A stretch of DNA of 64,000 bases from a virus. The notes under the pieces are model-generated. The model was not told the DNA's origin. It did not search any database and worked only from the letters and a program-made list of their open reading frames with translations. The number at the start of each line of letters is the position of its first letter. The first letter of the stretch is position 1. Location of the stretch: IMG/VR virus record IMGVR_UViG_3300045747_000454, positions 52,034 to 116,033 of that record. One strand, written 5' to 3'. Of the stretch, positions 40-52,317 are shown one piece after another. The position numbers and the translations under genes were made by a program.

Positions 40-531
40 TTACGGTAGGACGGCGTCCTTACGAATCAGCCAGACGCGCGTGACATCCTTACTCCAAGCC
101 TTGATGACATTCTTAGACCAACTGCGAAAGTTGGCGTCGTCAACCTTCTCGAGGTCCGTGACTCGAACGTAGCCGAGCTGCGCCGCGTGCCGCCCGACTA
201 TAGCATCGTAGAGCTTGACTCGGCTTAGCTCGCTGTTCTTGGAGCTGAAGCCAATGCCAAGTGGCTTGTTCTCGGCGACGGCTTTCTTCAACACGTCAAA
301 GACCGTGCTGAGAATGCGCAGAGCAACGATCCTGTCGGCTGGACTATCGCCAATCAGATCCCACGTTCCCTTTCGCTTGAAATCGACGATGTAGGTCTGA
401 CCACCCTGCCACCAATCGAGCGTGATAATGACAAGCTCATTCGAGCCATCCAGAAAGTGCGCCTCAATGCTCTTGTTGTTCTCTTCAACCTCGTACTTGT
501 ACGGAGAGTCAAGCAGCTCTTGCAGAATCAT
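40..531 (-). CDS. hypothetical protein with capsid-targeting-like leader (MILQELLD)
   Basis: Likely start is ATG 531, which forms an ATGA overlap with the gp6-like stop; the track's longer 40..762 ORF overlaps the gp6-like gene. Confidence 0.75.
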   Translation of the reverse strand: MILQELLDSPYKYEVEENNKSIEAHFLDGSNELVIITLDWWQGGQTYIVDFKRKGTWDLIGDSPADRIVALRILSTVFDVLKKAVAENKPLGIGFSSKNSELSRVKLYDAIVGRHAAQLGYVRVTDLEKVDDANFRSWSKNVIKAWSKDVTRVWLIRKDAVLP

Positions 532-3500
532 TTGACGGCCTGCCTGATCACGGTTGGCGTCAGAGCGTCGACGATCTCGATGTCGCCCAACTCTGCTGCG
601 GATTGAAGAATCTCGTCGATGCCTGACTCGACGGTGAACATCGCACCGAATGAGTTCGTGCTGTACGTTGGCACCAGCACGACCGTCGCCACGTCGGCAG
701 GCAAGCGCTGGTGAATCAGACTGGACAGCTCGGTGGCGTAGAACGTGTCGCCGAAGTCCCAAGTGTCGATGCTGAAGTACGTGTTGATGACGTTCAGAAT
801 CTCTTCCTTGATGCGCTCGTTCGTCAGCGTCGAGGACTGCGCACGAACGACCTTGAACTTGGCGCGCAGCTGAGGTTCAGCAAGACCACCGAAGAGCAGG
901 CGCAGCTTGCCTGGATGCAGCACGAGCGTGTCGCTCAGCATCTTGTTCTCAAGCAGATAGCCGTAGGTGTTGCGCAGGTCGAGCGGCGTCGGTGGCGTCG
1001 GAGCAGACAGCGAGGTGCCACGCACGTAGCTGATGACGTTGTCGTAGTAGCCGCGCGTCATCAGATAGGCGTCGTGAATGTTCGTTGGCGACGGATCGAT
1101 GACGTTCGTGAATGGTGTGAAGTGCTCCCACATGAAGTCGAGGCCCTTGTCGCTGTTCGACACGGACGACAGCTTTGGCATACGAAGGTTGCGCCCGTGC
1201 GTCAGCGAGTTGTTGATTGTGGCGCCAGCTTGCCAGGATCCAGGCGTCGGGTCAGCGGCAGACAGCACGGTTGGCGTTGCCAGCGAGAAGTACTCGTAGC
1301 TGTCGGCGGCAAATGTTTCAAACTGCAGCAGGCGATCAGGGATCAGGTCGCCAGAGGTGTCCTCATTCAGCAGGTCAGACGGCACGATTTCAAGCTGATT
1401 GACGTTGATCGATCCGCTTGAATCACGAACAGCACCGACAACGTCGTACAGCTGTGAAGTGCCAAGCGGCTGTCCAGCCGTGTCGAGATTGGAGCGCAGC
1501 ACCTTGACATTGTCGAAGACGCGCTTCTTAGTGTCGGTGTCGATGAGAACATCAAGATTGTTGTACCAAAAGCGAGTCGTTGGCGACTCGACGATGAGCT
1601 TGAAGTTGCGATGATTGACCTCGTAGCCAACGACTTGCAGCGTCGAGACGGCGCGAATCTTGCGAACGAAGATGACCCAGCTATGCTGCTTCAAACTCGT
1701 CGTTGTGGTGAAGACCTGCGGGTCTGCCATTGACGAGGCGAAGTCAACCATGCCTGGCGCTGACGCTGGCATGATCTGCCACCAACCATTCAGATTGACC
1801 TTGCAGGTCCACGTCGGACTGGCGGCACCGCTGGTTGCTGAGCGAAGAGACAGCACACCGGTTGCGCTGGTGTCGAGAATGAAGGCGTCACCTGCGACGA
1901 GCGTCGTCGTGCCCTGCGTCACGGTGAACATCGGAGTGCTGTTCGTGAAGCCAACAGGCTGAATGTCGTACTCACTGCCAATCTTGCCAGTCGGGAATGT
2001 CCCACGCAGATTGGAGCGCACAGCCAGCGTCAAACCATCAGCTTGAACTTCAATCGTCCAAACCTCACCAGCTTGCCAGAATCCGCTTGCAACCCAAGTG
2101 CCGTTGATTGCAATGGTACCATTGCCGATTGCAGCGAGCGTGCGATTGTAGCGCAGTCCAAAGTAGTCTTGAGCAGCGACCGATTGAATGCCTGAGCCAG
2201 TGTCGCCAGGTGGCGACTTGTTGATGCTGTCGATGGTGCGTGGCAGCGTCGCATCGTAGAGGTTGCCATCGTCCTCAGCGTTTGGACCTTGAACTGGAAT
2301 GACGCCGAGCAGCGTGCCGTTGGCGTCAACAACTCGATTCAGCGGCTCGCCGTACCAGTGACGGTCGATGAGGCCCTGCATCGCAGTCTTCTCCTTGAGC
2401 GAGCCGTTGCCAGCAAAGCCAAGAACGGTATCGACCTTGGTCGTGGAGCCGACGATGTTGTATGGTCGAGCGCGATTGTCCTCGATGAACTTGCGGCGGG
2501 GCGCCGACACAACACCACGAGTGGCTGGGTCAGTTGCCGAAATGTGCAGCAGCAGGTCAACGACGCCTGGCTCCTTGAGCAGCGGTTCGATGACGTCATC
2601 GATGAGACCCTTGCCAGACACGCTCGTCGTGATCGTGTTCATCGTCATGACGTAGCGCATGACCAGGTCGTCGCCGAACAGCTTGACATTCTCGTACTGA
2701 CCTGATGCGTCGTTCCAGTCGATGTACTTTGGCTGTCCAGCGAAGGTGCGATTGATCGTTTTGAGGCGAAGGATGGTTGGGTCCTTCAGCAGAAACGTGT
2801 TGTAGTCCTGCCCATTGACCATGCGGTTCTGAGCGTAGTAGGTTGCCGGCGCTGAGCGACGAACGTGCTCAATCGACTCGGTGGCTGAACCATTCTGCAG
2901 CGTCGAGGTCAGACTGAACGTCATCGTGATCGATTCGGCGTTGCCGAGCGTCGACGTGTAGTTCAGCGCCATCACCTGATTCGAAATGCGATTCTTCTGA
3001 ATGACGATGCTGCGGTTCGCTGACTGACGAAGCCAGAAGCGATACGAGCCGATCGGCGCGTCAGAGAAGTCACCATCGCCAAAGATGACGGTGACCTGAT
3101 CATTCTCGCGAGTATCGACCTCGAACTTCTTGCGAGTGCTGCGAATGTCGTTGAAGACCAGATTCTGCTCAGCGACTGTATCAACCTGCTGCCAACGCTC
3201 TGCCACGCTGCCATTCAACGCCAGACCTTGAACCCAGACGTCAGTGTGATTGACGTTCTCAGGATCGAAGTCGAGGCGACGATTTGGAAGGCGCTGCGTG
3301 ATGTCGTAGTCGATGCGCGTCAGAATGCCCTGCTTCGTGAAGAACAGAAAGCCAGTGTAGTCTGAGCCGTCGCCAATACCGTCGTTGGCGTACATGATTG
3401 AGAGCGGCGCTTGAAGGTCAGGCTCACGCTCGAACGGACCATTGTCGTCGACGTCAGCTGACACGATTTCCATGTTGAACGACTCGAGACCAGTTGACGC

Positions 3501-4094
3501 CTTGTAGGCGAACACCGCATTACGCAGAGTGGCAGGGTCGTTGCGCAGCGCGTAAAGGTCAAACACGACATCGCCAACCGTCTGTGTCTTCTGTGGTTGG
3601 CCGAGACGCGAACGAAGAATACGGTTCATGACGAGCGTGAACTGCTCCTTCCAATTCACGTTGTTCGCATCGTTCCACGTGATGGTTAGACCAGAGAGGT
3701 CGACGCCACGACTGTCGATGACGCGCTCGGTCGTCGAGACGGTGGTGACCTTCACCAGACCACGCACTGGAATGTTGCGCGTCGCCTTGTAGCTGATGAG
3801 CTTGGCGAGCTTGAGAATCGACTGCTTGCGCTGCGCCGTCGTGATGAAGTTCTCGTGCGCAACCATGTCGACACGGTAGGCGAGCTGCTCGGCGATGTAC
3901 GCAAACAACTCGAGCATCGCGATGAACTCAGACGACTGAATGTAGTCGTTGAACTGCTCGGGATAGTACGTGCGCGTGTAGTCAACCAGCGACTGCTTGA
4001 TTGTGTCGAAGTCGTACGAAACGAAGGAGACTGCGTTGAAAGCCTGATAGATCTTGTCCCAGGTTTCAGCGGAGTAGGTTGTGCGAAGCGCCAT
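528..4094 (-). CDS. baseplate wedge subunit, T4 gp6-like (1188 aa)
   Basis: N-terminal YDFDTIKQSL..Y..FNDY..SSEF..MLELFAY..ENFITTAQ and internal QNRMV..QDY are typical of gp6; lies next to gp25. Confidence 0.9.
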   Translation of the reverse strand: MALRTTYSAETWDKIYQAFNAVSFVSYDFDTIKQSLVDYTRTYYPEQFNDYIQSSEFIAMLELFAYIAEQLAYRVDMVAHENFITTAQRKQSILKLAKLISYKATRNIPVRGLVKVTTVSTTERVIDSRGVDLSGLTITWNDANNVNWKEQFTLVMNRILRSRLGQPQKTQTVGDVVFDLYALRNDPATLRNAVFAYKASTGLESFNMEIVSADVDDNGPFEREPDLQAPLSIMYANDGIGDGSDYTGFLFFTKQGILTRIDYDITQRLPNRRLDFDPENVNHTDVWVQGLALNGSVAERWQQVDTVAEQNLVFNDIRSTRKKFEVDTRENDQVTVIFGDGDFSDAPIGSYRFWLRQSANRSIVIQKNRISNQVMALNYTSTLGNAESITMTFSLTSTLQNGSATESIEHVRRSAPATYYAQNRMVNGQDYNTFLLKDPTILRLKTINRTFAGQPKYIDWNDASGQYENVKLFGDDLVMRYVMTMNTITTSVSGKGLIDDVIEPLLKEPGVVDLLLHISATDPATRGVVSAPRRKFIEDNRARPYNIVGSTTKVDTVLGFAGNGSLKEKTAMQGLIDRHWYGEPLNRVVDANGTLLGVIPVQGPNAEDDGNLYDATLPRTIDSINKSPPGDTGSGIQSVAAQDYFGLRYNRTLAAIGNGTIAINGTWVASGFWQAGEVWTIEVQADGLTLAVRSNLRGTFPTGKIGSEYDIQPVGFTNSTPMFTVTQGTTTLVAGDAFILDTSATGVLSLRSATSGAASPTWTCKVNLNGWWQIMPASAPGMVDFASSMADPQVFTTTTSLKQHSWVIFVRKIRAVSTLQVVGYEVNHRNFKLIVESPTTRFWYNNLDVLIDTDTKKRVFDNVKVLRSNLDTAGQPLGTSQLYDVVGAVRDSSGSINVNQLEIVPSDLLNEDTSGDLIPDRLLQFETFAADSYEYFSLATPTVLSAADPTPGSWQAGATINNSLTHGRNLRMPKLSSVSNSDKGLDFMWEHFTPFTNVIDPSPTNIHDAYLMTRGYYDNVISYVRGTSLSAPTPPTPLDLRNTYGYLLENKMLSDTLVLHPGKLRLLFGGLAEPQLRAKFKVVRAQSSTLTNERIKEEILNVINTYFSIDTWDFGDTFYATELSSLIHQRLPADVATVVLVPTYSTNSFGAMFTVESGIDEILQSAAELGDIEIVDALTPTVIRQAVK

Positions 4095-4120
4095 GAAGAA
4101 TGTCCTGTGTGAGCGTCAGC

Positions 4121-4126
4121 TATTTA
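4121..4126 (-). promoter_or_regulatory. late promoter TAAATA for the gp6-like gene
   Basis: TATTTA about 27 nt upstream of the start at 4094. Confidence 0.7.
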
Positions 4127-4516
4127 TGATCCAACGGGGAACGTGAGCTTGAGCGTTTCCTTCGTGTTCAGGCGAAGGTAGATGACGTCAACAAAGGCGA
4201 CGATGGCGTTGTTGTCTGGCAGCGCCATGACGGCAATGTCAACCATCTGAAGGCGAGGGTCGTACTCAATGACCATTCGCAAATCGTCCTCAACGACTTT
4301 CAGGCTTCGCTCGTCAAGTGGCTCGAACGCCATCATCGGAATGCGCGTGCCGAAGTTCGGTTGCATGACGCGCTCGCCAGGCGTCGTGTAGATATGGTTG
4401 AGCAGATCACGCTTCACGGTTTCGAAGTCGGTGGTCGTGAACGGACCACCACGCGTCTCGTAGCTGCTCGCAGTGGAAAAACCACGGTAGATTGCTGCAT
4501 TAGGATTGAAGGACAT
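4124..4516 (-). CDS. baseplate wedge protein, gp25-like
   Basis: DLLNHIYTTPGERVMQPNFGTRI..FEPLD..YDPRL is the gp25/GPW signature. Confidence 0.92.
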   Translation of the reverse strand: MSFNPNAAIYRGFSTASSYETRGGPFTTTDFETVKRDLLNHIYTTPGERVMQPNFGTRIPMMAFEPLDERSLKVVEDDLRMVIEYDPRLQMVDIAVMALPDNNAIVAFVDVIYLRLNTKETLKLTFPVGS

Positions 4517-4519
4517 ACG

Positions 4520-5644
4520 TTACGCTTTCCAGTTTGGGCCACGCTTGCCCGTAGTGCCAGGCCTCGGCCAGGGCTCGTGATCAGGCACGATGGTAGGTTT
4601 ATCAGCGCACTTCGCCTCGGTGGCCTTGGGACCGTTCAGTTGAATCGCTGTGCCAGTCAGGAACAGAATGCCCTTCGACAGAATGTTGAACTTCACGCCA
4701 GACGTCAGGTCAAGACCACCGTCACCAGAAAGTGAAACATCCTCGCACGCCGTCATGCGCGCGTGCCCAGTCGCGTTGAGGTTCAGATTCTTGCCAGCCT
4801 GAAGATTGATGTTGCCAAGCGCCGACACGTTGAAGTCACCGCCAGTCGACATGCTGATAGCCTCGGCTGCGTAGATGTGCACGTGGCCATCAGCGTCGAG
4901 CTCGACCCAAGTCTTGCCCTGCGCCGTCGAGACGTAGATGCGCTCGTTGGCGTCGTCGAAGATGACCTGATGCCCTTCAGCAGTCTTGATGCGAATGCGA
5001 GCAAAGCGGGCATCGTCCTGCAGAATGATGGCGTGTCGCCCAGGCGTCGTAATGCAGTAGGTCTGTGGGTCAAGCCCAGTGCTCTCGGTATCCTTGTCCT
5101 TGACCGTGGCAGTGCGCGTCGAGTAGCCCTCTGCGTCAGACTTGTCCGTCAGCGCCTGCGCAGCCTGTCGCTCGTAGGCGCCACGCGTCTTGGCAATCGA
5201 ATCACCGAGCTTGCCGTTGAACTGCGCCTTCAGATTTGAGGCGGCTGGTTCAATCGTCTCGAAGGTGTCTGACACTGGGGCACCACCATCCTTGTTGCGA
5301 CCGGCAGGCAGCGAGCGATTCGTGTGCACATCGAAGTATGAGCCCATGTAGACGCGCAGGCTCGGGTCGTCGTAGAGGAAACCGATGATGACGTGAGCGC
5401 CGACGCGCGGCACAGCCCACAGTCCGTAGGCGACTGGTCCAGTCGCCTTGGCGCCGCTGCCACCGCCAGCGTAGTCCTCAGCAGAGCCAGCTAGCTGCGA
5501 GGTGTAGAGAACCCACGGCAGCGTGTTGACGTCGAACGAGGTCAGGTCGCCATCGATTGACGGACACCAGACCTTGAAGCGACCCATCTCTTGTGGGTCA
5601 GCCGTTTCAACAACTACGCCCTCAACTAGTCCTGGCAAATTCAC
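4520..5644 (-). CDS. baseplate hub / central spike, gp5/VgrG-like
   Basis: OB-fold start GVVVETADPQEMGRFKVWCP..LPW..VPRVGAHVIIGF; C-terminal beta-helix-like repeats; ends with P.HEPW. Confidence 0.85.
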   Translation of the reverse strand: MNLPGLVEGVVVETADPQEMGRFKVWCPSIDGDLTSFDVNTLPWVLYTSQLAGSAEDYAGGGSGAKATGPVAYGLWAVPRVGAHVIIGFLYDDPSLRVYMGSYFDVHTNRSLPAGRNKDGGAPVSDTFETIEPAASNLKAQFNGKLGDSIAKTRGAYERQAAQALTDKSDAEGYSTRTATVKDKDTESTGLDPQTYCITTPGRHAIILQDDARFARIRIKTAEGHQVIFDDANERIYVSTAQGKTWVELDADGHVHIYAAEAISMSTGGDFNVSALGNINLQAGKNLNLNATGHARMTACEDVSLSGDGGLDLTSGVKFNILSKGILFLTGTAIQLNGPKATEAKCADKPTIVPDHEPWPRPGTTGKRGPNWKA

Positions 5645-7680
5645 TTCGTCTCCTTAGCTGGTGTTCCTTGAGTCGCTGGACCTGCGGCGGCAATCTTGTT
5701 GCCGCCGAAGATGTTGTGCGAGTAGAGCTCGAGCGTCTGCGTGAAATTGTGCCCAGTAAACTCATTCGACACCTTGAACACCGTATAGTAGCAGTCGGTC
5801 AGCACGCTGGTAGCGTAGTCGCCGTCTAGCTCAGTGTTGGTCTTGAAGTCGACGTTCGGACCCATGACCTTGACGCGAACGAAGACTGGCGAGGCGATGT
5901 AAGAAGCTTCAGACAGCGCAGATTCTTGCATCTTGAACTTGCCATTACCCTTACCCTCAAAGCCGAGGCGAGCAATGCGAGCGTCGAGGTCAGCACGATA
6001 CTTCAGCACGCCGTCTGCATCGCCCGCTGGCCTGTGGTCGAGCAGCGTGTCGATGTTGAACTTGTGCAGAATTTCTGGATTGCCCTTAATGCGCATCGCC
6101 ACGGTAATTGGCGAGCCAGCGTAGAACTTTGTGAGGTTAGCTGTGTAGCGCTGCGCCTCTTGCTGTTGCTCTAGCTGCTTGGCGCCAGATGCCATCTCGT
6201 CGCTTATCTTCTTGAAGTTCATCTTGACCGCGTCCGTGTCAAGCGGCATCAACAGCGGGTCCTTCGGACGAGTGTAGAGCAGGTCCTCAATGGCGCGCTT
6301 CACGTCGTCTGATTGCGTCTTGTCGGCAGCAACGCGCAGCGCTCCATCACCCATGCGCAGATTGGAGGCAAGCAGAAACTGAAAGTCTTGAACCTTCATC
6401 TCGAACTCAAGAATGTCCTTGTTCGCGCCGGTGAAGATGTAATCGTATTCGATGAAGTTCTGTGGAACGCGCTTCTCGGTGCCAGTCGTACCGTCTGGCA
6501 CAAGCTTGTACCAACGAGCTTCCTTCTCGCTGACGGTCGTTGGCGTTGACTTCTGATGCAGAAAGACGTTCGGCACCTCGAACTCGTAGACGTCAATGTG
6601 AACTGTGAGCGTTTCTTCATCGCTTGTGATGCCGACCAAATGCTTGTAGAATTTGATGGAGCCTTCTTTGATTGAGTCGCGCTGTTGAAAGTTGCCGAGC
6701 TTGGCAATCTCTGGGACCTGCACGAAGATGAGGTCGAGCGCCTTAGTCAGCGAGGTCCCTGGTGGTACGGCGCTGTACGATGTGGCAACCTTGCCAGCCT
6801 TCTCATCTGCCGCCTTCTTGGCGTCAATAGCACGCTGAGCAGCATCACGAATGCGCTCCTCCGCCTTGCCAGACACGCCGCCCGCAAATGTCATGTCATT
6901 CCAGGCGTCTGGAATCGTGATTTGATACTGCACCATTCGTCCAGTCGTCTTCGTACTGCCAGTGCCATTCAGCACGCCTTGAACTGCGCCGTAGTACTCT
7001 TTTGAGACCGCGTTCAATCGGTCGTTGAGACTTTTGATGGCGCTGCTGAGCTTGTTGTCTTCTGACTTGTACGACGTTGCCGTTGAGACCGTGAGAAAGC
7101 GACCGAAGCGATTGACATTGAAGTTCATGTTTGGCATGAACTCGAGCGTGTAGGTGCCACGCCCAAAGTCGAGATTGATGTCCATGCGATTCAGATGCAT
7201 TGGAATCGTTTCAGACTGCACAGTCTCTGATGAGCCGTCTGGATGGTGGCCGACGAAGATGGTGCGCAGCATGAAGACCATGCCATCGTAGTTTGTCTGC
7301 AGCTGCTTGTCCATCAACCACTGCATGAAGTTGCCGAAAGAGATGCCGACGCTGTCGAGAATCTGCATCGATAGGTCAGTCGCCAGATTCGACGTTGCCG
7401 CACCGGCCTGCAACCCATTGACGTACACATCGTACTTCAGCGATTCAACGGTGAATTGTCCGAAGCGGCGTGTGTCGAGAACAAGATACACGTCGTCATT
7501 GACGCCACCAACGCTGATTGGCGCGCCAAGATAGGTGGCAGCGTCGATAGCTTCAAGCGTGGCTTGCTTAAAGGATGAGTTCGCAAAGTTGAGTGCAGTC
7601 TGCGTCGTTCGGCAGGCCACGAGAATGTAGTGAATCGAGTACGACGAAAAGTCGTCAAGTGGATTTTTGATGTATGGCAT
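5641..7680 (-). CDS. baseplate hub protein (gp27-like), putative
   Basis: Position between gp53-like and gp5-like genes; C-terminal MRIKGNP...YTVFKVSNEF.G.NFTQTLEL pattern of hub proteins. Confidence 0.6.
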   Translation of the reverse strand: MPYIKNPLDDFSSYSIHYILVACRTTQTALNFANSSFKQATLEAIDAATYLGAPISVGGVNDDVYLVLDTRRFGQFTVESLKYDVYVNGLQAGAATSNLATDLSMQILDSVGISFGNFMQWLMDKQLQTNYDGMVFMLRTIFVGHHPDGSSETVQSETIPMHLNRMDINLDFGRGTYTLEFMPNMNFNVNRFGRFLTVSTATSYKSEDNKLSSAIKSLNDRLNAVSKEYYGAVQGVLNGTGSTKTTGRMVQYQITIPDAWNDMTFAGGVSGKAEERIRDAAQRAIDAKKAADEKAGKVATSYSAVPPGTSLTKALDLIFVQVPEIAKLGNFQQRDSIKEGSIKFYKHLVGITSDEETLTVHIDVYEFEVPNVFLHQKSTPTTVSEKEARWYKLVPDGTTGTEKRVPQNFIEYDYIFTGANKDILEFEMKVQDFQFLLASNLRMGDGALRVAADKTQSDDVKRAIEDLLYTRPKDPLLMPLDTDAVKMNFKKISDEMASGAKQLEQQQEAQRYTANLTKFYAGSPITVAMRIKGNPEILHKFNIDTLLDHRPAGDADGVLKYRADLDARIARLGFEGKGNGKFKMQESALSEASYIASPVFVRVKVMGPNVDFKTNTELDGDYATSVLTDCYYTVFKVSNEFTGHNFTQTLELYSHNIFGGNKIAAAGPATQGTPAKETK

Positions 7681-43514: not shown

Positions 43515-45368
43515 ATGGCAGCTCTCATTTCACCGGGCGTAAGCGTAACGGTCACCGACCAAAGCTTCTTCTTCCCGACCGCTGCGGCGACAGTCCCGCT
43601 CATCTTCCTGGCAACTCGCGCCAACAAGCGTCAGGCTGACGGCGTCTCGACGGCGTCTGGCACGCTTGAAAGTGGCGTCGTTCGCACCATCACCTCAGTG
43701 ACGCAGTCGCTGCAGCTGTATGGCGTGCCGTACTTCCACACCGACATCTCTGGTCAGGGTCTGCACGGCGATGCTCGCAATGAGTACGGTCTGTTCACGC
43801 TGAACAACTTCCTCGGCATCGGCAACCGTGCCTTCGTCGTTCGCGCCAACATCGACCTGAATGACCAGACCGACACCTTCATGTCGCTCGGCACTCCAGT
43901 CGCTGAGAACCTTCAGTTCGTTGGTCTCGGCACTGGCACTTGCACTGGCATCAGCGCTGCATCAAGCCTGGTCAAGACGCAGACGATCACTGTGACCTTC
44001 TCAAGCCCAACGTCCTTCGGCATCACTGGCTCGGTCAGCGGCTACATCACCGCCGGCAACGTCGGTCAACCATTGCCAGTCGCATCGCCAATTCAGCTGT
44101 CGATCACCGCTGGTGCTGGTGTTGGTTCGCACGCCTTCGTCGCTGGCGACAAGTTCACCTTCGATCTCGTTTACGCTGCTACCCCAGCCGTTGGCAACAC
44201 GGGTAATGGCACCGTCACAAGTCTGCGCACTGACGCTTATCTGACGAACAGCGTTTGGACCATCACGTTCTCGTCACCGACCGCCTACTCGGTGTCTGAC
44301 GGCATCAACACTCCAGACTCTGGCGTCGTTGGCTCGCCGTTCGACAACAACAAGCTGAACTTCACCATTCTGGCTGGCACACTCCCGTTCGTCGCTGGCG
44401 ACGAGTTCGACATCACCGCAGCTCAAGTTCAAATCGTCTCGCCGCTCGGCTCGACCGACCTGGCTCGTCGCGGTGAGATCGCCAAGGCTCTGCGCGCCGC
44501 GATTGGTCTCAACGTCGAAATCCGTTCTGAGCTCTATGAGTACAACCTCATTGTCTGCCCAGGCAACTACGACGTCGCAGCCTCGCTCATCGACCTCGCC
44601 AACAGCATTCACGACGAAGCCTTCGTTCTGCTCGACACACCGTGCGACCTGAACCCAGAGCAAGTCACATCGTGGGCAATGACCTCGAAGCGTCAAGGCG
44701 GCAACGGCAACGCGTACTACTACCCATGGGCCATTCAGTCGAACCTCGACGGCGCCCTCGTGTTGATCCCGCCATCGGCTGTCGCGCTGCGCACGCTGGC
44801 TTTCAGCGATGATCAGTCGTACGTCTGGTTCGCACCAGCCGGTACCGCTCGTGGTCGCACCTTCGGCATTCAGTCGGTTGGCTACGTCACCGGCACGCTC
44901 GGCACCGCAACGACCTTCATCGAGACGAACCTGAACCAAGGTCAGCGCGATGACATGTACATTCAAGGCCACGCCATCAACCCAATCACATTCTTCCCAG
45001 GTCGTGGTACCCTCGTCTGGGGTCAGAAGACCTCGCAGTACGACTCGTCAGCCATGGACCGTATCAACGTCGTCCGTGGTGTCATGTTCCTGCGTCGTGT
45101 GCTTCGCAAGGGTGCGATGCCGTTCGTGTTCGAACCGAATGACCAGATCACTCGTGACAACCTGAAGGCAGCCGCCGACGCTCTGCTCAGTGACATGATG
45201 GTCAAGCGCGGTCTCTATGACTTCGCCACCTACTGCGATGGCACGAACAACACGCCAACCGTGATCGACAACAACCAGCTGATCCTGGACATTGCCATCA
45301 AGCCAACGCGTGCGGCAGAGTTCATCTCCATCCCAATCCGCGTCGTGGCTACTTCAGCCACTATCTAA
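43515..45368 (+). CDS. tail sheath protein, gp18-like
   Basis: SPGVSVTVTDQS; YYPW; WFAPAG..RG; RD.MY...INPI; WGQKT; DRINV.R; FEPND..TR; IKPTRAAEFI; TAAATA at 43455-43460. Confidence 0.96.
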   Translation: MAALISPGVSVTVTDQSFFFPTAAATVPLIFLATRANKRQADGVSTASGTLESGVVRTITSVTQSLQLYGVPYFHTDISGQGLHGDARNEYGLFTLNNFLGIGNRAFVVRANIDLNDQTDTFMSLGTPVAENLQFVGLGTGTCTGISAASSLVKTQTITVTFSSPTSFGITGSVSGYITAGNVGQPLPVASPIQLSITAGAGVGSHAFVAGDKFTFDLVYAATPAVGNTGNGTVTSLRTDAYLTNSVWTITFSSPTAYSVSDGINTPDSGVVGSPFDNNKLNFTILAGTLPFVAGDEFDITAAQVQIVSPLGSTDLARRGEIAKALRAAIGLNVEIRSELYEYNLIVCPGNYDVAASLIDLANSIHDEAFVLLDTPCDLNPEQVTSWAMTSKRQGGNGNAYYYPWAIQSNLDGALVLIPPSAVALRTLAFSDDQSYVWFAPAGTARGRTFGIQSVGYVTGTLGTATTFIETNLNQGQRDDMYIQGHAINPITFFPGRGTLVWGQKTSQYDSSAMDRINVVRGVMFLRRVLRKGAMPFVFEPNDQITRDNLKAAADALLSDMMVKRGLYDFATYCDGTNNTPTVIDNNQLILDIAIKPTRAAEFISIPIRVVATSATI

Positions 45369-45450: not shown

Positions 45451-46089
45451 ATGAAGGTCACTGAACTATTCGAAGCCTACTCAGTTCTGCCAAAGCTTGA
45501 GAACATTGGAACCATCGGCGTCAAGCAGGCTGGCAACGTCTACACCGTGTCAGCCAGCGCCAAGTCAGGTCCCATCGTGGCCGGCATCATGAGCGTTTGC
45601 AAGACGCTCGGCAGCAAGAAGGGCTACACGCTCAAGACCCTCACTGGCAAGGTCATCGACCAATCGGTGCTGTTCAAGCTCTATGACACTCGCCCATACG
45701 GCGTGAAGGTCGTGTCCGACGAGCCGAACGCCGCCGAGGTGATTCAGAAGGCAGCGGAGTCCGCTACCGCTGGAGTCATCTCTGACTTCAAGAAGATGGT
45801 GCAGCACAAGAAGGACGCGCCGAAGCGTAAGGCTGAAGCGTCGAAGTACGCTGCCGCTGGTCGCCGTGAAGACATGAAGAAGTACGACGAGCTCTACGGC
45901 AAGGGTACTTGGAACCGTGTCACGTACAAGCAAGAAGGTGGCGACGACGGCTATCAGTACGTCGTGCGCGTCGATGGCAGAGTGATTGACAATGGTCTCA
46001 CGCTGTCTTCAGCCAAGTACGAGAAGCGTGAAGCGGTCAAGCGTCTCGCCAAGAAGGAAGGTCTGGGAACCTTCGGGAAGAAGTCATGA
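45451..46089 (+). CDS. basic hypothetical protein with leader MKVTELFE
   Basis: Late promoter, GGAG RBS. Confidence 0.75.
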   Translation: MKVTELFEAYSVLPKLENIGTIGVKQAGNVYTVSASAKSGPIVAGIMSVCKTLGSKKGYTLKTLTGKVIDQSVLFKLYDTRPYGVKVVSDEPNAAEVIQKAAESATAGVISDFKKMVQHKKDAPKRKAEASKYAAAGRREDMKKYDELYGKGTWNRVTYKQEGGDDGYQYVVRVDGRVIDNGLTLSSAKYEKREAVKRLAKKEGLGTFGKKS

Positions 46090-46433
46090 AGGTAACTGAA
46101 CTATTCGAAAGTCTGGCACCAGGTCAAGCGGCTTGGAAGGCTGAGATGACGAAAAAGGGAGCCGTCAAGTTCAAGCGCGACGAGCACGGCGGTGGCGCCG
46201 TTGATCGCATCGTCGCCTACAACGAGGCTGGCAAGGTCGTTGGTGGCTTCAATCTGAAGGCACGCGTCGCCGAAGGCGTCAAGGACAACTCCGAGAAGCT
46301 GGCAACGCTGAAGCGCCGCCTTCGTGAGCTGACAACTGACTTTCACAACATGGGCTACACCTTCGGTGAGGCTGAGCGCAAGCTTCGCGTCAAGCAGATC
46401 AAAGACGAGATTGCCGAGATCGAGGCGAAGTGA
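46086..46433 (+). CDS. hypothetical protein with leader MKVTELFE
   Basis: Same 8-aa leader as the upstream gene; ATGA overlap. Confidence 0.75.
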   Translation: MKVTELFESLAPGQAAWKAEMTKKGAVKFKRDEHGGGAVDRIVAYNEAGKVVGGFNLKARVAEGVKDNSEKLATLKRRLRELTTDFHNMGYTFGEAERKLRVKQIKDEIAEIEAK

Positions 46434-46993
46434 TCACCTTCAAGCAGTTCCTCGAAGAGGAAGAACGAACCATCCACGCCAAGAAGATCAAGGACGCAAA
46501 GCCTTGGTCTGCTAAGCTGGCTGAGGGCGACTACACCATCGGTGACGTCACGTTCAGCGCAGCCAATGGTCTTGGCGCGGTGCCGTACAATCAAGAGGTC
46601 AACTACTTCGGCTTCGTCGGGATGACAAAGCCATCAACGTTTCTAGAGCTCGCTCTGCCGCACGACGGTCAGCGTGAGCTTGACGCGAGCAACATTCAGC
46701 GGCTGATTGAGGAGGGCTACGCGTGTGGCATTCCGTTCATGCAGCTTCGACTGAACGACGAGGGTCTGCCACGCATCGAGGGGCATGAGGGTCGAGCTCG
46801 CATGATTGCCATTCAGAAGATTCTCGGCGATCAACCAATCCCAGTTCACTTTCTGCTGATGAACGGACTGCGCTCGAAGAACCTGACGCCAGAGCGTCTC
46901 GAAGCTATTCGGGATGGCATCGAGTCTGAGAACGGCAGCAAGTACGTTCGACATCCATTCTCACGAATCTACGTCAAGGGCGAAGCCGCCTAA
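46430..46993 (+). CDS. ParB/sulfiredoxin-like domain protein with leader MITFKQFLEE
   Basis: P..FL.LA...I...IEEG...GIPF.....RIEGHEGRARMIAI..I.GD..IPV. Confidence 0.6.
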   Translation: MITFKQFLEEEERTIHAKKIKDAKPWSAKLAEGDYTIGDVTFSAANGLGAVPYNQEVNYFGFVGMTKPSTFLELALPHDGQRELDASNIQRLIEEGYACGIPFMQLRLNDEGLPRIEGHEGRARMIAIQKILGDQPIPVHFLLMNGLRSKNLTPERLEAIRDGIESENGSKYVRHPFSRIYVKGEAA

Positions 46994-46998
46994 AACGA

Positions 46999-47024
46999 CA
47001 ATGGGAGTCGACTAACTCCCATTG
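46999..47024. terminator. hairpin between convergent operons
   Basis: CAATGGGAGT-cgacta-ACTCCCATTG. Confidence 0.7.
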
Positions 47025-47039
47025 GGTGAACCGCACGCG

Positions 47040-47077
47040 ATTCCTTATTTGCCTACTAATGCTATTAAATGTGCGCG
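47040..47077 (-). repeat. 38-nt AT-rich dispersed element, copy 2
   Basis: Reverse complement cgcgcacatttaatagcattagtaggcaaataaggaat; includes the kinase stop codon. Confidence 0.9.
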
Positions 47078-47625
47078 AGTGATTTTGTGATCACGAAGTA
47101 GACGCACATGTCGAACACGTAGTCGCTCCACATCGTCCGAGTCGTTGGTTGATCATCGGTATCACGGTCGAGGACCTGATAGTTGGTGCCGTACTTCTGG
47201 TACTCTGTGAGACCGGCATTGAACTGCTCAACGGTTAACTTGATGCGATCGTCGACGAAGGGTTGCGTGACGGGTGGTCGAGTGAAGAAGACCTCGAGCA
47301 CGTCGAACCGACGTAGAAACTCTGCGTGATAGAACTCAGACACAGCGGTCGACTCGCCACGCAGCACCTTGTCGTAGACGAGGTTCGACACGACGAAGCG
47401 GTCGAGCAGATAGACCTTGGACGGGTCGAGCAGCTCGAACATCGAGAACAGCAGCTCGAAGTCCTTCTCGGTGTTGATGCGCAGCAGGTCGCCAGACGGC
47501 AGCGTCTTCTTGAACTCGATGATGTGCGCAGCACCAGGACACGCGTGCTTCACTTGGCGCATCATCGTTGACTTGCCGCAGTTGTCCATGCCGTCGAAGA
47601 CAATGAAGCTAGTTTTTGCAGACAC
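47065..47625 (-). CDS. dNMP (thymidylate-like) kinase
   Basis: IVFDGMDNCGKST P-loop, LLDRF..S..VY; GTG 47625 with AGGAG RBS. Confidence 0.85.
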   Translation of the reverse strand: MSAKTSFIVFDGMDNCGKSTMMRQVKHACPGAAHIIEFKKTLPSGDLLRINTEKDFELLFSMFELLDPSKVYLLDRFVVSNLVYDKVLRGESTAVSEFYHAEFLRRFDVLEVFFTRPPVTQPFVDDRIKLTVEQFNAGLTEYQKYGTNYQVLDRDTDDQPTTRTMWSDYVFDMCVYFVITKSLAHI

Positions 47626-48652
47626 GCACGAACTCCTGGTTGTAGTACTGGTCGGTCTCCGCCGGCTCGTAGACGAACGGAGTATGGTCGAGCATATTAT
47701 ACCACGCCGTCTCAAGCGCAGTCTCAAGCTGATCGAGGTTGTCGATCGCCACTGGGTTGTCGATCAGGTTCGAGGTGAACGTCACCATTGGGCAACCGTA
47801 GTACAGAAACTCGACGGTGCCTGGGTGCAGGACCGTGTCGATGTCGTCGAGCATCACGATCATCGGCACCGAGTCGAGGTGACCGTAGTACTCGGCCTTC
47901 GTCGGCTTGATCCGTTGAACATAGTCTGGCAGCGCGTCGCCACTGCTCTCGTTCGGATCGGTGATGACGACGAACCAGCCCTTGTCGGCGAGGCCTTGGC
48001 GCTCGAACGCTTCGAGAAACTCAGTCCACTTGTAGGCCTTGTCGGACAGGCGGAACGGCCAGAAGATCAGCATCGGGTCGCAGGCCGGCGGCGTTGGCTT
48101 GGACTTCGGCAACAGCAGCGAGTGCGCGCACTTCAGATCGAAGAAGACACGGTCGATCAGGTCCGGACGAACCTCGAGGATGTACTCGCGCTGTCGAGGG
48201 TTGATGACCGTCGTGAAGAGCGATTGCTCGATCGACTTCAGATCCTTCTCGAAGAACTTGTCGATGTACGGCCGATCGAGCTCTGGCAGCTTCGTGATGT
48301 TGAAGTTGTAGATGACCGGCAGCTTGCCGTAGTAGCCAGTGATGTCGGTGATCAGCAGGTCGAAGCCGTGAATCTTGTCCACGTCGTTCGCAGCCCAGAA
48401 GATCTCACGAGTCTCGACGGCATTCTCGCCGTACTCGAACGGACGAATCTTGATGCGGTCGGTTCGAGCGTGAACGAAGGCAGCGGCCTCAGCGTAGTCG
48501 CTCGAGTTGAGCGGCACGCCGAGCGCGACGTAGTCGAAGTCGGACGCGAGCGCGCGAGCTAGAGCCAGCTGAAAGTTGCCATCCTTGAGGATGGCGTACT
48601 TGCCGGTCTCATAGCTGCGCATCGAGAAGATGGGCAGCCAGAGCGCTCTCAT
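47609..48652 (-). CDS. putative DNA glycosyltransferase (GT-B-like)
   Basis: 347 aa; FDLLITDITG, IFWPFRLSDK.Y, late H.G.VEFLYYGCPMV resemble GT-B motifs; lies between the TS-like gene and the kinase. Confidence 0.55.
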   Translation of the reverse strand: MRALWLPIFSMRSYETGKYAILKDGNFQLALARALASDFDYVALGVPLNSSDYAEAAAFVHARTDRIKIRPFEYGENAVETREIFWAANDVDKIHGFDLLITDITGYYGKLPVIYNFNITKLPELDRPYIDKFFEKDLKSIEQSLFTTVINPRQREYILEVRPDLIDRVFFDLKCAHSLLLPKSKPTPPACDPMLIFWPFRLSDKAYKWTEFLEAFERQGLADKGWFVVITDPNESSGDALPDYVQRIKPTKAEYYGHLDSVPMIVMLDDIDTVLHPGTVEFLYYGCPMVTFTSNLIDNPVAIDNLDQLETALETAWYNMLDHTPFVYEPAETDQYYNQEFVRVCKN

Positions 48653-49602
48653 TGCGAAGCGACCTTCAGGTCAGGCATCGTCGGCACGAAGCTGTTCCAG
48701 CCACCGGTGGTTGGCGGCTCAACACCATCCTCGTCGTTGAAGATCACCGCAGCCGGGACCGTGATCGTCTTGATCTGCGGCGGTGCCTTCTTCTGAATCA
48801 CGCCAATGCGACCGTCTTCGGCGTCGGCCAGAATCTTGTCGACCAACGGCTGCTCACGCTCGAAGTAGTGAGCGCTGACGATGTTGTGATGGTAGATGCC
48901 GAGCTCGAGCGCTGGGTGCACGGCCTTCAGCGCCTTCCACAGGTACTCGTGCAGCATCGTCATGTTGAACACGTCGTAGCAGAGGGTGAGGACCATGTTG
49001 TTGGAGCGCATGTGGGTGTACATGTTCAGATGACCGTCGCGAATCAGCCACGTGAAGGAGTCGGTACATGGGTACTCTTCCTTCGTGTCGGTGCCGAGCA
49101 TGTTGAGGTCGTCCTCGTTCAGCACGTGAATGACGCAGCGACGTGAGTCAGGGTCGCGCGTCAGCTCTTCGATGATGAAGGGCAGCTGCTTGAGAATGCG
49201 CGGACCGTACGCCGTCGAGAAGTTCGTCGGCATCGCCTTGTCGTCCTTCGGCTTGTCGATGAACTCGACCGCGTGCTTGTTGGCGCCGGAGACGTAGGAG
49301 AAGTCGGTGTCGCCGTTGACCATCCAGATGAAGAACTTCATCGCGAACTCGTAGTTGACCTCGCGAGCCTTGTTCCAGACCATGCGGTCGCGCGGGTCGG
49401 TCAGCTCGAAGGTCAGGTTCGTGATCTCACGCGAACCAACGCCACGCGGCGACGGGGTGTACTCGGGATTCTCCTTCAGCATGCGCAGCATGTCGAGGTA
49501 GATCGTCTCGAAGTTGTTGCCGATGAAGTACTTCTGCGTTGCGCAAACGGCCCAGAACTCGCCAGCGGCCTGTTCGTCATCGGAGGTGTAGTCGAGAGTC
49601 AT
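48649..49602 (-). CDS. thymidylate-synthase-fold dCMP-modifying enzyme (dCMP hydroxymethylase-like)
   Basis: AYGPR, DPDSRR, YPCT catalytic Cys, MRSNN..L.L.YD (Asp at the TS Asn177 position), SAHYF; start ATG 49602. Confidence 0.85.
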   Translation of the reverse strand: MTLDYTSDDEQAAGEFWAVCATQKYFIGNNFETIYLDMLRMLKENPEYTPSPRGVGSREITNLTFELTDPRDRMVWNKAREVNYEFAMKFFIWMVNGDTDFSYVSGANKHAVEFIDKPKDDKAMPTNFSTAYGPRILKQLPFIIEELTRDPDSRRCVIHVLNEDDLNMLGTDTKEEYPCTDSFTWLIRDGHLNMYTHMRSNNMVLTLCYDVFNMTMLHEYLWKALKAVHPALELGIYHHNIVSAHYFEREQPLVDKILADAEDGRIGVIQKKAPPQIKTITVPAAVIFNDEDGVEPPTTGGWNSFVPTMPDLKVASQ

Positions 49603-50114
49603 GATTGTCCTTGAAGGTTGAAGCCGGTGTTGTAGGCTGAGGTGAGATAGGCGTCGGCGAGGGCTGGCGTCATGCGTGGGCCCACGTTGCTGCAGACGTG
49701 AAAGGAGGGATGAAGGCCACAGTAGCGCATGGCATCGCCAAGATAGGTCAGGTCTGGATCCTTGTCCTGACCCAGCGTGATGAAGCACGTCACTGGGATG
49801 TTCAGCGTTGGTGTCATTCTACCAAGCTTCTCATCGTACTTGAACGCCATGTCCCGGACGAAGACTGTTTGAAGCAGGTCGACGAGCTTGGCCGGCGGCA
49901 TCTCCCACCAGCACGGGTAGACGAAGTTGATGTGCTCTGCCCAACCCGTTGTCACAAGCCGATGAACGAAGTCAGAGCAGCCGCCGTCGAAGGCGTGCGC
50001 GCGTCGAACCCAATGTTTGGCGTCGTCAGCACCCTTGTGAAACTTGTCCGCCAACTGATGACAGAACGATCCATGGCGTGGATCGGGGTGAGCGATGATT
50101 TGAAGGACGTTCAT
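49599..50114 (-). CDS. flavodoxin-fold NAD(P)H oxidoreductase (Flavodoxin_2-like)
   Basis: VL.IIAHP...SF...LA; A..I.FVYP.WW..PPA.L...L..VF..D.AF. Confidence 0.8.
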   Translation of the reverse strand: MNVLQIIAHPDPRHGSFCHQLADKFHKGADDAKHWVRRAHAFDGGCSDFVHRLVTTGWAEHINFVYPCWWEMPPAKLVDLLQTVFVRDMAFKYDEKLGRMTPTLNIPVTCFITLGQDKDPDLTYLGDAMRYCGLHPSFHVCSNVGPRMTPALADAYLTSAYNTGFNLQGQS

Positions 50115-50272
50115 GGTCTTTCCGTAGTGATGAGCAGATTGTATCTTATCGGCGGCACGCCTCGACCCGTCTTCAGGATCAACGAACCGCCTGCTCAGGA
50201 TGCACCAAAATTTCAGTGCCCTCGCATAAATAGGTCATCACACTGCTCTATGAGCTCACAGGAGATAAGACA

Positions 50273-50866
50273 ATGGCAACACTGGCTAACATGGGTATTC
50301 CGGGCGCCGGCGCTGGTATTCTTCACCCACGCCTTCGCAACAAGTTCCGCATCACGTTTCTGAACATTGGTCAGCTCGTGCCAGGCACCAACTCACGCAA
50401 CATGACAATGCAGGTCACGACGATCACGCTGCCGAACATCTCGTTCACCGAAGTTGTTCTGCATCGTTACAACTCGACTGCGTACATCGCCGGCAAGCAC
50501 GAGTGGCAGCCAATCAACGTGACGGTCGAAGACGACATCACCGGCCTCGCCGCCACGGTTGTCAAGGCTCAGCTCGAGACTCAAGGTCGCATCATCGGCG
50601 TTGACCTCGACGGTCGTTGGCTGAACACTGCTGCCACTGGCTCGGACTACAAGTTCGGCGCCAAGATCGATCAGCTCGACGGCGACGAAGGCGTTGTTCA
50701 GACCTGGATCCTTGAAGGCTGCTTCATCGCTTCCGCTGACTTCGGCGATCGTGACTACTCGGCTTCTGAAGCCGCTACCATCGTGATGTCGATTCGCTTC
50801 GACCACGCTCGCCACATCGAGACCGGCGCTGGCTACGGTACTGCGCTCGGCGGTAACGTCGCTTAA
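50273..50866 (+). CDS. tail tube protein, gp19-like
   Basis: P.LRNKFR..F; LP..SF.EV....YNS..YIAGKHEW.PI...EDD; DYKF; QLDG; W.LEGCF; IRFDHA; TAAATA at 50227. Confidence 0.93.
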   Translation: MATLANMGIPGAGAGILHPRLRNKFRITFLNIGQLVPGTNSRNMTMQVTTITLPNISFTEVVLHRYNSTAYIAGKHEWQPINVTVEDDITGLAATVVKAQLETQGRIIGVDLDGRWLNTAATGSDYKFGAKIDQLDGDEGVVQTWILEGCFIASADFGDRDYSASEAATIVMSIRFDHARHIETGAGYGTALGGNVA

Positions 50867-50955: not shown

Positions 50956-52317
50956 ATGCCAGCATCAATCAAAGGCCTACTGAACGACTCGCAGATCGCG
51001 CTTGAGAAGCAAGCGTCCGATAAGTTCGGTGCGGCGGTTGAGGGCTTCGCGCACGGCACGCTCGGGCTTACTGATCCGAACAAGGTTCAACCAAAGGTCA
51101 ATCGCAATGATGGGTCGTGGTACGCAACGTCCTACGCTGCGGCTCTTGCTGGTGCCTCAGACTTTCGCCCGAAGCTTAAGTTCCTCTTCAAGGTCGAGTT
51201 CAACTTCACCCCAGAAGCTCAGAAGGTCATCAACACCGTTCCAAATCTGAAGAGCAAAGAGTTCTCGTTCATGATCAAGCAGGTTGACCGCCCGAAGATT
51301 ACCTTCGAGTACGAAGAGGGCGTCAACATGTACAACTTTCGCACGAAGGCGCTGAAGAACATTCAGCACCGAGAGTTGACGATGATCTTCATGGACGACG
51401 TTGGCAATCGCGTCTTCGACTTCTTCCGTGTCATGATGATGATTCACTCTCCAATCACGCAGCGTGCTGTTGCTCGTGATGGCACGATGCTACCGCCAGA
51501 GCGCATTCAAGCTTCGTACAATGCCGGCAACAGCATGGCATTCACGCAGCTGACTGAGAACATGCTCAACAAGCAGGCGGCGAACAATAAGGACAACGCT
51601 CACCGCGCCGTCGTCAACTCGACGTTCGGCAACTCTATTGAGAGCATTCGAGTCAAGCAAATCTTCGTCAACCCAATGAAGGGTCTGGCAGACGCAGTTG
51701 AGATGGTCTCGTACGACTTCATCAATCCACGCATCACCAACTTTGACCTTGATGAGCTGTCGCACGAGAGCAATGAAGTCAATCTGCTGACAATGGTCTT
51801 CGACTACGACTGGATGGAAATGGTCGACATCGGCACCATCGGTTCGAAGACCGTGTCATACGGCGATGATCAGAAGCAACAGATGATGGCGAAGGGGTTG
51901 CACGGCGCCCCAACCGACATCTCACCAAACAGCGTGAATGGCGGCACCAACGCTACTGCTGCTGGTGGCAACAAGGGATTGTCTGGTGCGCTCGGCTCCA
52001 TCGTCGATCGCCAGCTCACGAACGTCTCAAAGGACCTCGCCTCAAAGGCGCTCAAGACCGTGGCAGGCAATGGACGCTTCGCTAACGTCATCTCACAGCA
52101 AGCTGGCAGCGCCTTTGGCGGTGCTGGCGACGCACTGTTGAATGGCGCCGTATCTGGCATTGGCGGTCTGCTCAGCAGCGCCACGAACCCGAATGGGCGC
52201 ACCGCGTCCAATGTTAGCTCATCATCTCGCCCTGGCGCAGACTCAACTTCGACTGGCACACCGTCAATGACGCAGGTGACATCGACTGGCGTTGACATCC
52301 CTTACGGACAGACCTAA
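50956..52317 (+). CDS. tail-tube-like baseplate junction protein (gp54-like), putative
   Basis: PKLKFLFKVEF; K.VDRPK..F; N.YN; INPRIT.FD.DELS; L...FDYD; G/S-rich tail. Confidence 0.65.
   Translation: MPASIKGLLNDSQIALEKQASDKFGAAVEGFAHGTLGLTDPNKVQPKVNRNDGSWYATSYAAALAGASDFRPKLKFLFKVEFNFTPEAQKVINTVPNLKSKEFSFMIKQVDRPKITFEYEEGVNMYNFRTKALKNIQHRELTMIFMDDVGNRVFDFFRVMMMIHSPITQRAVARDGTMLPPERIQASYNAGNSMAFTQLTENMLNKQAANNKDNAHRAVVNSTFGNSIESIRVKQIFVNPMKGLADAVEMVSYDFINPRITNFDLDELSHESNEVNLLTMVFDYDWMEMVDIGTIGSKTVSYGDDQKQQMMAKGLHGAPTDISPNSVNGGTNATAAGGNKGLSGALGSIVDRQLTNVSKDLASKALKTVAGNGRFANVISQQAGSAFGGAGDALLNGAVSGIGGLLSSATNPNGRTASNVSSSSRPGADSTSTGTPSMTQVTSTGVDIPYGQT

Follow-up and report, generated by a model that had tools for sequence, protein, structure and literature searches.

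A putative flavodoxin-fold reductase gene coupled to a predicted 5-hydroxy-dCMP synthase gene in a probable cytosine-modification cassette of an uncultured jumbo phage

Results

Organisation of the cassette

We analyzed a stretch of 64,000 nucleotides (nt; hereafter the window) from the IMG/VR virus record IMGVR_UViG_3300045747_000454 (positions 52,034 to 116,033), a record of 116 kb which is 32% complete according to the CheckV estimate. The window contains a cassette of four overlapping open reading frames (ORFs) on the minus strand, which are inserted between the genes for the tail sheath and the tail tube, both encoded on the plus strand (Table 1). In the order of reading, the cassette genes code for a putative flavodoxin-fold reductase, a homolog of thymidylate synthase (TS), a glycosyltransferase (GT) of the GT-B type and a nucleotide kinase resembling thymidylate kinase (TMK). 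A first-pass annotation made from the sequence alone had described four overlapping minus-strand genes amid tail genes, and the ORFs were indeed found where it had placed them. The trio of TS, GT and kinase genes represents an already published gene set and is not new; the reductase gene coupled to these known genes is the new part of the cassette.

The four genes are tightly packed. The flavodoxin and TS genes overlap in an ATGA sequence, with the start codon of the TS gene (ATG at 49602) lying on the stop codon of the flavodoxin gene, and the TS stop and GT start codons likewise overlap as ATGA, while the GT and kinase genes overlap by about 17 nt. An alternative TS start at GTG 49788 was rejected, and the ATG at 49602 is regarded as the real start codon. 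The kinase gene most likely starts with the GTG at 47625, which is preceded by AGGAG. In several loci, tblastn alignments of the kinase ORF run upstream of this GTG into the overlapping C-terminus of the GT (window 47609-47727, minus strand), which probably reflects the conserved reading frame of the GT and not a longer kinase. The cassette looks like a single compact transcription unit directed against the late structural genes.

Table 1. Positions of the cassette genes, of neighbouring features and of flavodoxin-fold genes of a second family (window coordinates unless a contig or the genome is named; aa, amino acids)
Feature	Position	Strand	Remarks
Flavodoxin-fold NAD(P)H-dependent flavin oxidoreductase (reductase role proposed), 171 aa	49599..50114	-	PF02525; sequence and model
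TS-fold enzyme, predicted 5-hydroxy-dCMP synthase, 317 aa	48649..49602	-	PF00303; Cys146, L143E, D169N, N177D
GT-B glycosyltransferase, 347 aa	47609..48652	-	phrog_3891; homolog of RB69 gp46:47 / DLP3 gp79 ('arabinosyltransferase 1')
TMK-like P-loop kinase, 186 aa from GTG 47625	47065..47625	-	phrog_761; homolog of RB69 gp45 / DLP3 gp78 / RL38J1 gp214
Intrinsic-terminator-like hairpin, 11-bp stem then TCGTTTT	46999..47024	-	Terminator scan and sequence; after the kinase gene, between convergent genes
TACAAT box (context gaTACAAT), candidate -10 element of the cassette	50138..50143	-	24 nt upstream of the flavodoxin ATG; putative promoter
Tail sheath gene	43515-45368	+	phrog_10581
Tail tube gene, 197-aa product	50273-50866	+	phrog_4542
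Further gaTACAAT sites	10217, 28317, 29114	+	Recurring box
Further gaTACAAT sites, upstream of the window	genome positions 87, 6709		Recurring box
PF03358 gene, L067	2466-2936	-	Beside a D169N TS gene (2989-3696), divergent, adjoining an arabinose-type cluster
PF03358 gene, L053	56-607		2.4 kb upstream of a D169N TS gene
PF03358 gene, L070	182-646		2.4 kb upstream of a D169N TS gene
PF03358 gene, L038			About 3.8 kb upstream of a D169N TS gene
PF03358 gene, L057			About 5 kb upstream of a D169N TS gene
Further PF03358-type member, L085	1414-1902
Further PF03358-type member, L088	1393-1866

Signature of the TS homolog

The TS fold was assigned by a match to PF00303 (3e-13, above the Pfam cut-off) and by matches to 62 TS-family sequences of the PDB. 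When aligned with ThyA of E. coli, the protein was found to retain Cys146, Arg166 and Ser167 and to carry the exchanges L143E, D169N and N177D. The column of the catalytic Cys146 is invariant, with EYPCTDS of the TS homolog facing LAPCHAF of ThyA and a Glu standing opposite Leu143; RSNN in place of RSCD represents the D169N exchange, and LCYD in place of LPFN at the end of the following segment represents N177D. The motif alignment put forward in the first-pass annotation, which placed RSNNMVLTLCYD on RSCDVFLGLPFN, was confirmed with the E. coli enzyme as the reference and gives the same exchanges at positions 169 and 177.

The D169N exchange was reported as the diagnostic change of synthases for 5-hydroxy-deoxycytidine monophosphate (5-hydroxy-dCMP), and such homologs depend on flavin mononucleotide (FMN) and O2 (Lee et al., NAR 2026, PMC13326640). 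The D169N homologs of the phages RB69, DLP3, RL38J1 and Thanatos as well as nine metaviromic sequences made 5-hydroxy-dCMP, and every D169N homolog assayed gave 5-hydroxydeoxycytidine (5hodC). The RB69 and DLP3 enzymes co-purified with a loosely bound FMN-like flavin, and labelling of 5-hydroxy-dCMP by 18O2 indicated that the introduced oxygen derives from O2 (PMC13326640). The crystal structure of the enzyme of phage HY126 contains flavin, according to the citation of He et al. 2026 in the same paper.

Searching the PDB with HMMER, we obtained the best agreement of the TS homolog with 9iqc, 9ir2 and 9iqu (3e-42), followed by MilA (5e-23) and the dCMP hydroxymethylase gp42 of phage T4 (4e-5). 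The depositors' label of 9iqc reads 'thymidylate synthase' only; the entries 9ir0 and 9iqz of the same accession series are labelled as phage HY126, and 9iqc is probably the HY126 hydroxylase. Because of its signature residues and because it is far closer to 9iqc than to T4 gp42, we read the TS homolog as a hydroxylase and have high confidence in predicting it to be a 5-hydroxy-dCMP synthase. The first-pass annotation had taken D169N and the coupled flavoprotein as a hint of flavin-assisted hydroxylation at C5 instead of folate-dependent hydroxymethylation, which is supported by the published chemistry (PMC13326640), the signature and the closeness to 9iqc. Its hint at non-canonical C5 chemistry was right in part: the hydroxylation chemistry was correctly anticipated, but it is no longer an undescribed one, as the core pathway was published in 2025–2026.

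At its C-terminus, the TS homolog of the window is additionally extended by about 60 aa (…VPAAVIFNDEDGVEPPTTGGW…; window 48649-48840, minus strand), a segment lacking in most TS homologs, which measure 233–257 aa. A tblastn match in the related locus L024 extends to residue 306 of the TS query, so the extension may be common to that locus.

Glycosyltransferase and kinase

The GT matched phrog_3891 (7e-70) and was 41–42% identical to gp038 of phage JS98 (over 287 residues, E 1e-50) and to the related proteins encoded in over 300 records of Straboviridae. The annotation of JS98 gp038 reads RB69 orf047c-like; its gene adjoins those which code for the TS homolog and for a TMK-like kinase of this phage. 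Direct comparisons of the window proteins with this trio gave 37% identity for the kinase (gp040, E 3e-23), 36% for the TS homolog (gp039, RB69 gp48 type) and 42% for the GT (gp038). The JS98 proteins gp040, gp039 and gp038 are the counterparts of RB69 gp45, gp48 and gp46:47, which are listed as 'nucleotide kinase', '5hodCMP synthase' and 'arabinosyltransferase 1', respectively (Table 1 of PMC13326640). The 347-aa protein had been called GT-B-like from its sequence, and this fold was confirmed by an AlphaFold2 (AF2) model with a mean confidence score (pLDDT) of 92, for which Foldseek returned MshA (3c4q), sucrose-phosphate synthases and the glycosyltransferase 9ir0 of phage HY126. MshA 3c4q was also given for RB69 gp46:47 by Lee et al. 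(PMC13326640). We predict that the GT glycosylates 5-hydroxycytosine (5hoC) in DNA.

The kinase matched phrog_761 (6e-13) and, weakly, the P-loop portion of PF02223 and TIGR00041; its substrate is probably 5-hydroxy-dCMP. The presence of a nucleotide kinase in the cassette was confirmed; the first-pass annotation had called it a dNMP kinase. Judged by its matches to thymidylate-kinase models and JS98 gp040, the protein is of the TMK-like type of RB69 gp45 and probably not a dNMP kinase of the T4 gp1 type. The order of events proposed from the gene content, running from modified dCMP via the kinase and incorporation to glycosylation on the DNA, agrees with the published pathway.

We found no genes of the SIS, NTP-transferase, AfhE-like, HAD, MazG, dimeric dUTPase or Glycos_transf_1 types in the 116-kb record, and four related fragments were likewise free of SIS and AfhE-like genes. 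Because the record and the related fragments are only 19–43% complete, the absence of sugar-activation genes applies to the sequence present.

The flavodoxin-fold protein

The product of the first cassette gene was assigned to PF02525 (E 2e-13, above the Pfam cut-off), and its sequence matched the PDB entries 3lcm and 4r81, sharing the flavin-loop motif of the NADPH:quinone oxidoreductase 3lcm. An AF2 model with a pLDDT of 93 retrieved NAD(P)H:quinone oxidoreductases, azoreductases, MdaB and NQO1 as the top Foldseek matches. The window protein has the fold and the flavin-binding loop in common with 4r81, 3lcm, AzoR, MdaB and NQO1, and its P-x-W-W motif aligns with 3lcm, but it is only 13–20% identical to these proteins and shorter (171 aa vs. 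about 190–270 aa). A metagenomic protein collection contained 43 homologs of about 165 aa, all of them belonging to PF02525, with the conserved loops AHP..SF, P.WWEMPPA and GQ.K. Pairwise dN/dS ratios of 0.14–0.37 indicate that the reductase gene is under purifying selection.

Outside this group, relatives were not obtained: tblastn of the protein against 50,697 cultured phage records gave no match, and a scan of 185,579 prokaryote genomes with two short motifs, which excludes close family members only, did not detect a relative. A single-protein search of IMG/VR returned nothing, while a profile search of this database did find homologs. As found so far, the subfamily is confined to phage-like contigs and always tied to a D169N TS gene. 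The literature searched, with He et al. 2026 and Mahler et al. 2025 outside the search, names neither a phage reductase partner in the 5hoC pathway nor a source of the reducing equivalents for the hydroxylase.

Conservation of the gene pair

Using profile-guided scans, we fetched 12 loci from IMG/VR and 10 from metagenomes, some of which represent the same contig filed twice; the phage of the window comes from pond and wetland metagenomes. In all 20 loci with downstream DNA, the next gene after the reductase gene was a D169N TS gene. A flavodoxin link that was not conserved had been named beforehand as evidence against the proposal, and the link was kept throughout. The GT and kinase genes follow the TS gene in the related loci wherever the contig extends far enough, and all linked TS genes carry the motifs RS[QN]N...D and E-[FY]-P-C. 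The linked loci also share the flanking genes for the sheath (about 66% identity) and the tube (72–87%).

The TS genes of these cassettes fall into two subtypes. The RSNN/EYPC subtype is present in the window and in the loci L013, L023 and L024, with 65–69% identity to the window TS; the remaining loci contain an RSQN/EFPC subtype, which is 31–36% identical to the window TS and about 54% to that of JS98. The reductase, GT and kinase are homologous across both subtypes, with 50–63% identity for the GT and kinase, and the reductase gene is located directly upstream of either TS subtype (the upstream DNA of L024 ends with the contig). Within one lineage, as defined by the tube identities, one TS gene of the cassette has thus probably been replaced by another, while the reductase gene stayed. 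Since the reductase stayed while the TS subtype changed, its function does not seem to depend on a specific protein interface, and the fact that TS enzymes as different as these would be served by a single reductase family suggests an uptake of free reduced flavin by the hydroxylase. The reductase protein itself diverges to about 43–55% identity across the lineage, with the gene remaining intact.

A further case is represented by L023, a 7-kb metagenome contig without the flanking genes of the window, whose reductase is 33% identical to that of the window. Its genes form a one-strand operon (521-7015) coding for the reductase, a D169N TS, a MazG-like pyrophosphatase, a GT, a kinase, an SIS isomerase and an AfhE-like kinase/uridylyltransferase of the NTP-transferase/APH type. 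The contig looks like a complete operon for the arabinosylation of 5hoC and provides an independent context for the pair of reductase and TS genes. The operon also holds a 205-aa ORF and a DUF6794 ORF.

A second reductase family near D169N TS genes

In other uncultured large phages, we detected a second family of flavodoxin-fold proteins in the vicinity of D169N TS genes (Table 1). These proteins belong to PF03358 (FMN_red), are of the SsuE/ChrR type with the motif PE[YFW]NGS[YF]P and are not related to the PF02525 family of the window, as judged by hhalign. In several of the contigs, a DNA ligase gene separates the PF03358 gene from the TS gene, coding for an NAD-dependent enzyme in L053 and an ATP-dependent one in L038. 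The L067 reductase had no tblastn match in the 50,697 phage records, and pattern scans of IMG/VR recovered reductases of its type only on its own contig, while a Pfam-based record search gave more. Neither PF02525 nor PF03358 genes were present in two complete cultured-type Straboviridae genomes with a D169N TS gene. From these data, 5hoC phages of the environment may on at least two occasions have acquired a flavin reductase of their own, coming from flavodoxin-fold families that are not related to each other (PF02525 in the window and L023, PF03358 in L067, L053, L070, L057 and L038), each forming a two-component monooxygenase with the TS homolog; we offer this only as a tentative suggestion.

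Transcription signals and flanking genes

The gaTACAAT box upstream of the cassette also precedes several other genes of the genome, where it is located on both strands, 25–40 nt ahead of start codons that are equipped with good ribosome-binding sites, and may represent a phage-specific promoter element. A scan for the sigma-70 consensus did not identify a promoter site upstream of the cassette. In the tail region, the 197-aa tube protein is directly followed by a second tail-tube-like protein of 453 aa (window 50956-52317, plus strand; phrog_4542 at 8e-13). Between the sheath gene and the cassette, there are three small coupled genes (window 45451-46993, plus strand) without a PHROG match, of which the first two products start with MKVTELFE and the third with MITFKQFLEE.

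Discussion

Proposed pathway

From the gene content and its conservation, we consider it fairly probable that the cassette codes for a phage-encoded two-component dCMP 5-hydroxylase within a pathway to glycosylated 5hoC. The four-gene unit would allow a jumbo T4-like phage to swap cytosine for this modified base. The flavodoxin-fold protein would oxidise NAD(P)H and yield reduced FMN (FMNH2), and the TS-fold enzyme would attack C6 of dCMP via Cys146, upon which reduced flavin and O2 would hydroxylate C5 as shown for its homologs. The TMK-like kinase, host kinases or both should then raise 5-hydroxy-dCMP to the triphosphate, allowing incorporation by the phage polymerase, and the GT-B enzyme should finally attach a sugar, taken from a nucleotide-sugar donor, to the 5-OH of the base in the DNA, as shown for related clusters. 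With its loosely held FMN, its use of O2 and the lack of a domain for NAD(P)H binding, the published hydroxylase needs reduced flavin from outside; in E. coli, where the phage enzymes are active alone, the host evidently provides it. For the phage studied here, we infer the activity of the reductase and its role as flavin donor of the hydroxylase, as well as the substrate of the kinase and the sugar transfer.

Comparison with known systems

The TS homolog shares the fold, Cys146 and the exchanges L143E, D169N and N177D with the known 5-hydroxy-dCMP synthases (RB69 gp48, Acinetobacter phage DLP3 gp80, Rhizobium phage RL38J1 gp216 and the enzyme of E. coli phage HY126), and the genes of the cultured phages have the same neighbours for a GT-B transferase and a TMK-like kinase. 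It differs from the Straboviridae enzymes by an identity of only 31–38%, by RSNN in place of RSQN and by the C-terminal extension, and its gene is preceded by a translationally coupled flavodoxin-fold gene, whereas the cultured phages are without one. The core for arabinosyl-5-hydroxycytosine in RB69 (gp45, gp46:47 and gp48; PMC13326640) likewise consists of the same three families in a tight unit, with hydroxylation at the nucleotide level followed by glycosylation of the DNA, but the cassette of the window belongs to a jumbo phage and runs opposite to the sheath and tube genes between which it is located. In contrast to the RB69 cluster, the 116 kb of the incomplete record contain no genes for an arabinose-5-phosphate isomerase or for AfhE-like or HAD proteins, while L023 carries both an isomerase and an AfhE-like gene. 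AfhE and AfhF are reportedly sugar-activation genes from the work of He et al. 2026; together with an isomerase, their products would make the UDP-arabinofuranose used by transferases of the RB69 gp46:47 type.

The arrangement of a small NAD(P)H-dependent flavoprotein next to an O2-using oxygenase that binds flavin loosely is generally known from SsuE/SsuD, EmoB/EmoA and RutF/RutA, as well as from Fre of E. coli, which is a general supplier of reduced flavin. A flavodoxin-like type of fold is found in SsuE and EmoB as well. Compared to the SsuE- and RutF-type reductases, the window protein belongs by its sequence to the PF02525 branch (NQO1/AzoR/MdaB) and not to PF03358 or PF01613, and the oxygenase has a thymidylate-synthase fold unlike those of the SsuD and RutA type. 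A more distant parallel is provided by gp42 and the alpha- and beta-glucosyltransferases of T4, where a TS-fold enzyme also acts on dCMP (N177D) and the DNA is glycosylated afterwards against restriction; however, T4 gp42 keeps Asp169, uses methylene-tetrahydrofolate, produces 5-hydroxymethylcytosine and has no flavoprotein partner.

Weighing of the evidence

Several points argue against a two-component hydroxylase. Members of PF02525 are as a rule quinone or azo reductases which hold their flavin tightly, and the reductase partners of classical two-component monooxygenases belong to other families. The roles of the window protein as a reductase and flavin donor are proposed from its fold, motifs and gene linkage, and longer, fused forms of reductase and TS were not found among the homologs, which is weak evidence by itself. 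Nearly all linked loci represent one lineage which inherited the cassette at one sheath-tube site, and are not independent. When D169N synthases of diverse phages were produced in E. coli, 5hodC was formed although no reductase of a phage was present (PMC13326640); together with the cultured Straboviridae that have none, this implies that a dedicated reductase is not essential. In addition, the reductant or the gene may already have been described by He et al. 2026 or Mahler et al. 2025.

One alternative is that the flavodoxin-fold protein acts as a protector of the quinone-reductase type, which re-reduces oxidised 5-hydroxypyrimidine nucleotides by transfer of two electrons or limits the damage from uncoupled flavin and thereby stabilises the nucleotide pool. 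The closest structures and sequences of the protein would fit such a role, 5hoC has a low oxidation potential, and a conserved linkage to the hydroxylase would be equally expected. Cultured 5hoC phages manage without such an enzyme, however, and none has been described for them, while the second family, found beside D169N TS genes, belongs to the FMN reductases of the SsuE/ChrR type, for which a function in flavin supply fits at least equally well. The loosely bound FMN of the published enzyme (PMC13326640) also suggests that reduced flavin is required in free form, and we regard the protective function as unlikely.

The flavodoxin-fold gene may also be an auxiliary redox gene of unrelated function, which shares an early transcription unit with the modification genes of one phage lineage for historical reasons. 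This would be in line with the origin of most linked loci from one lineage and one site, with the activity of the hydroxylase in E. coli in its absence and with the lack of a fusion protein. On the other hand, the reductase gene has remained intact under purifying selection in spite of the divergence of its product, and its position directly upstream was kept across TS subtypes which are as different as 31–36% vs. 65–69% identity to the window TS. Because the pair also occurs in the different operon of L023 and an unrelated second reductase family is located beside or near D169N TS genes elsewhere, we consider a purely historical linkage to be improbable, and a little more so than a protective function. 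A T4-type, folate-dependent dCMP hydroxymethylase leading to glycosylated 5-hydroxymethylcytosine, as might be assumed from N177D, the acidic residue 143 shared with T4 gp42 and the label of dCMP hydroxymethylase in many database records of relatives, is very improbable and was rejected because of the D169N exchange and the uniform product of such homologs (PMC13326640), the much better HMMER match to 9iqc and the neighbouring GT and kinase genes, which are those of 5hoC clusters.

Significance

The route by which a family of folate enzymes acquired the use of flavin was not settled by Lee et al. (PMC13326640). The coupled reductase gene, together with the second reductase family occurring in parallel, is a new variation on the published pathway, and its conservation speaks independently, at the level of genomes, for the flavin mechanism. 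The predicted reductase also represents a concrete partner protein for reconstituting the reaction in vitro. If private flavin reductases were indeed recruited twice, the supply of reduced flavin would be a limiting, host-dependent step of 5hoC modification, and the reductase gene would mark 5hoC phages in genomes. The combination of a reductase and a D169N TS gene may serve as a simple signature for 5hoC-containing DNA in uncultured jumbo phages, for which the four-gene cassette would represent a compact and self-sufficient 5hoC module suited to hosts whose own flavin reductases may supply reduced flavin poorly.

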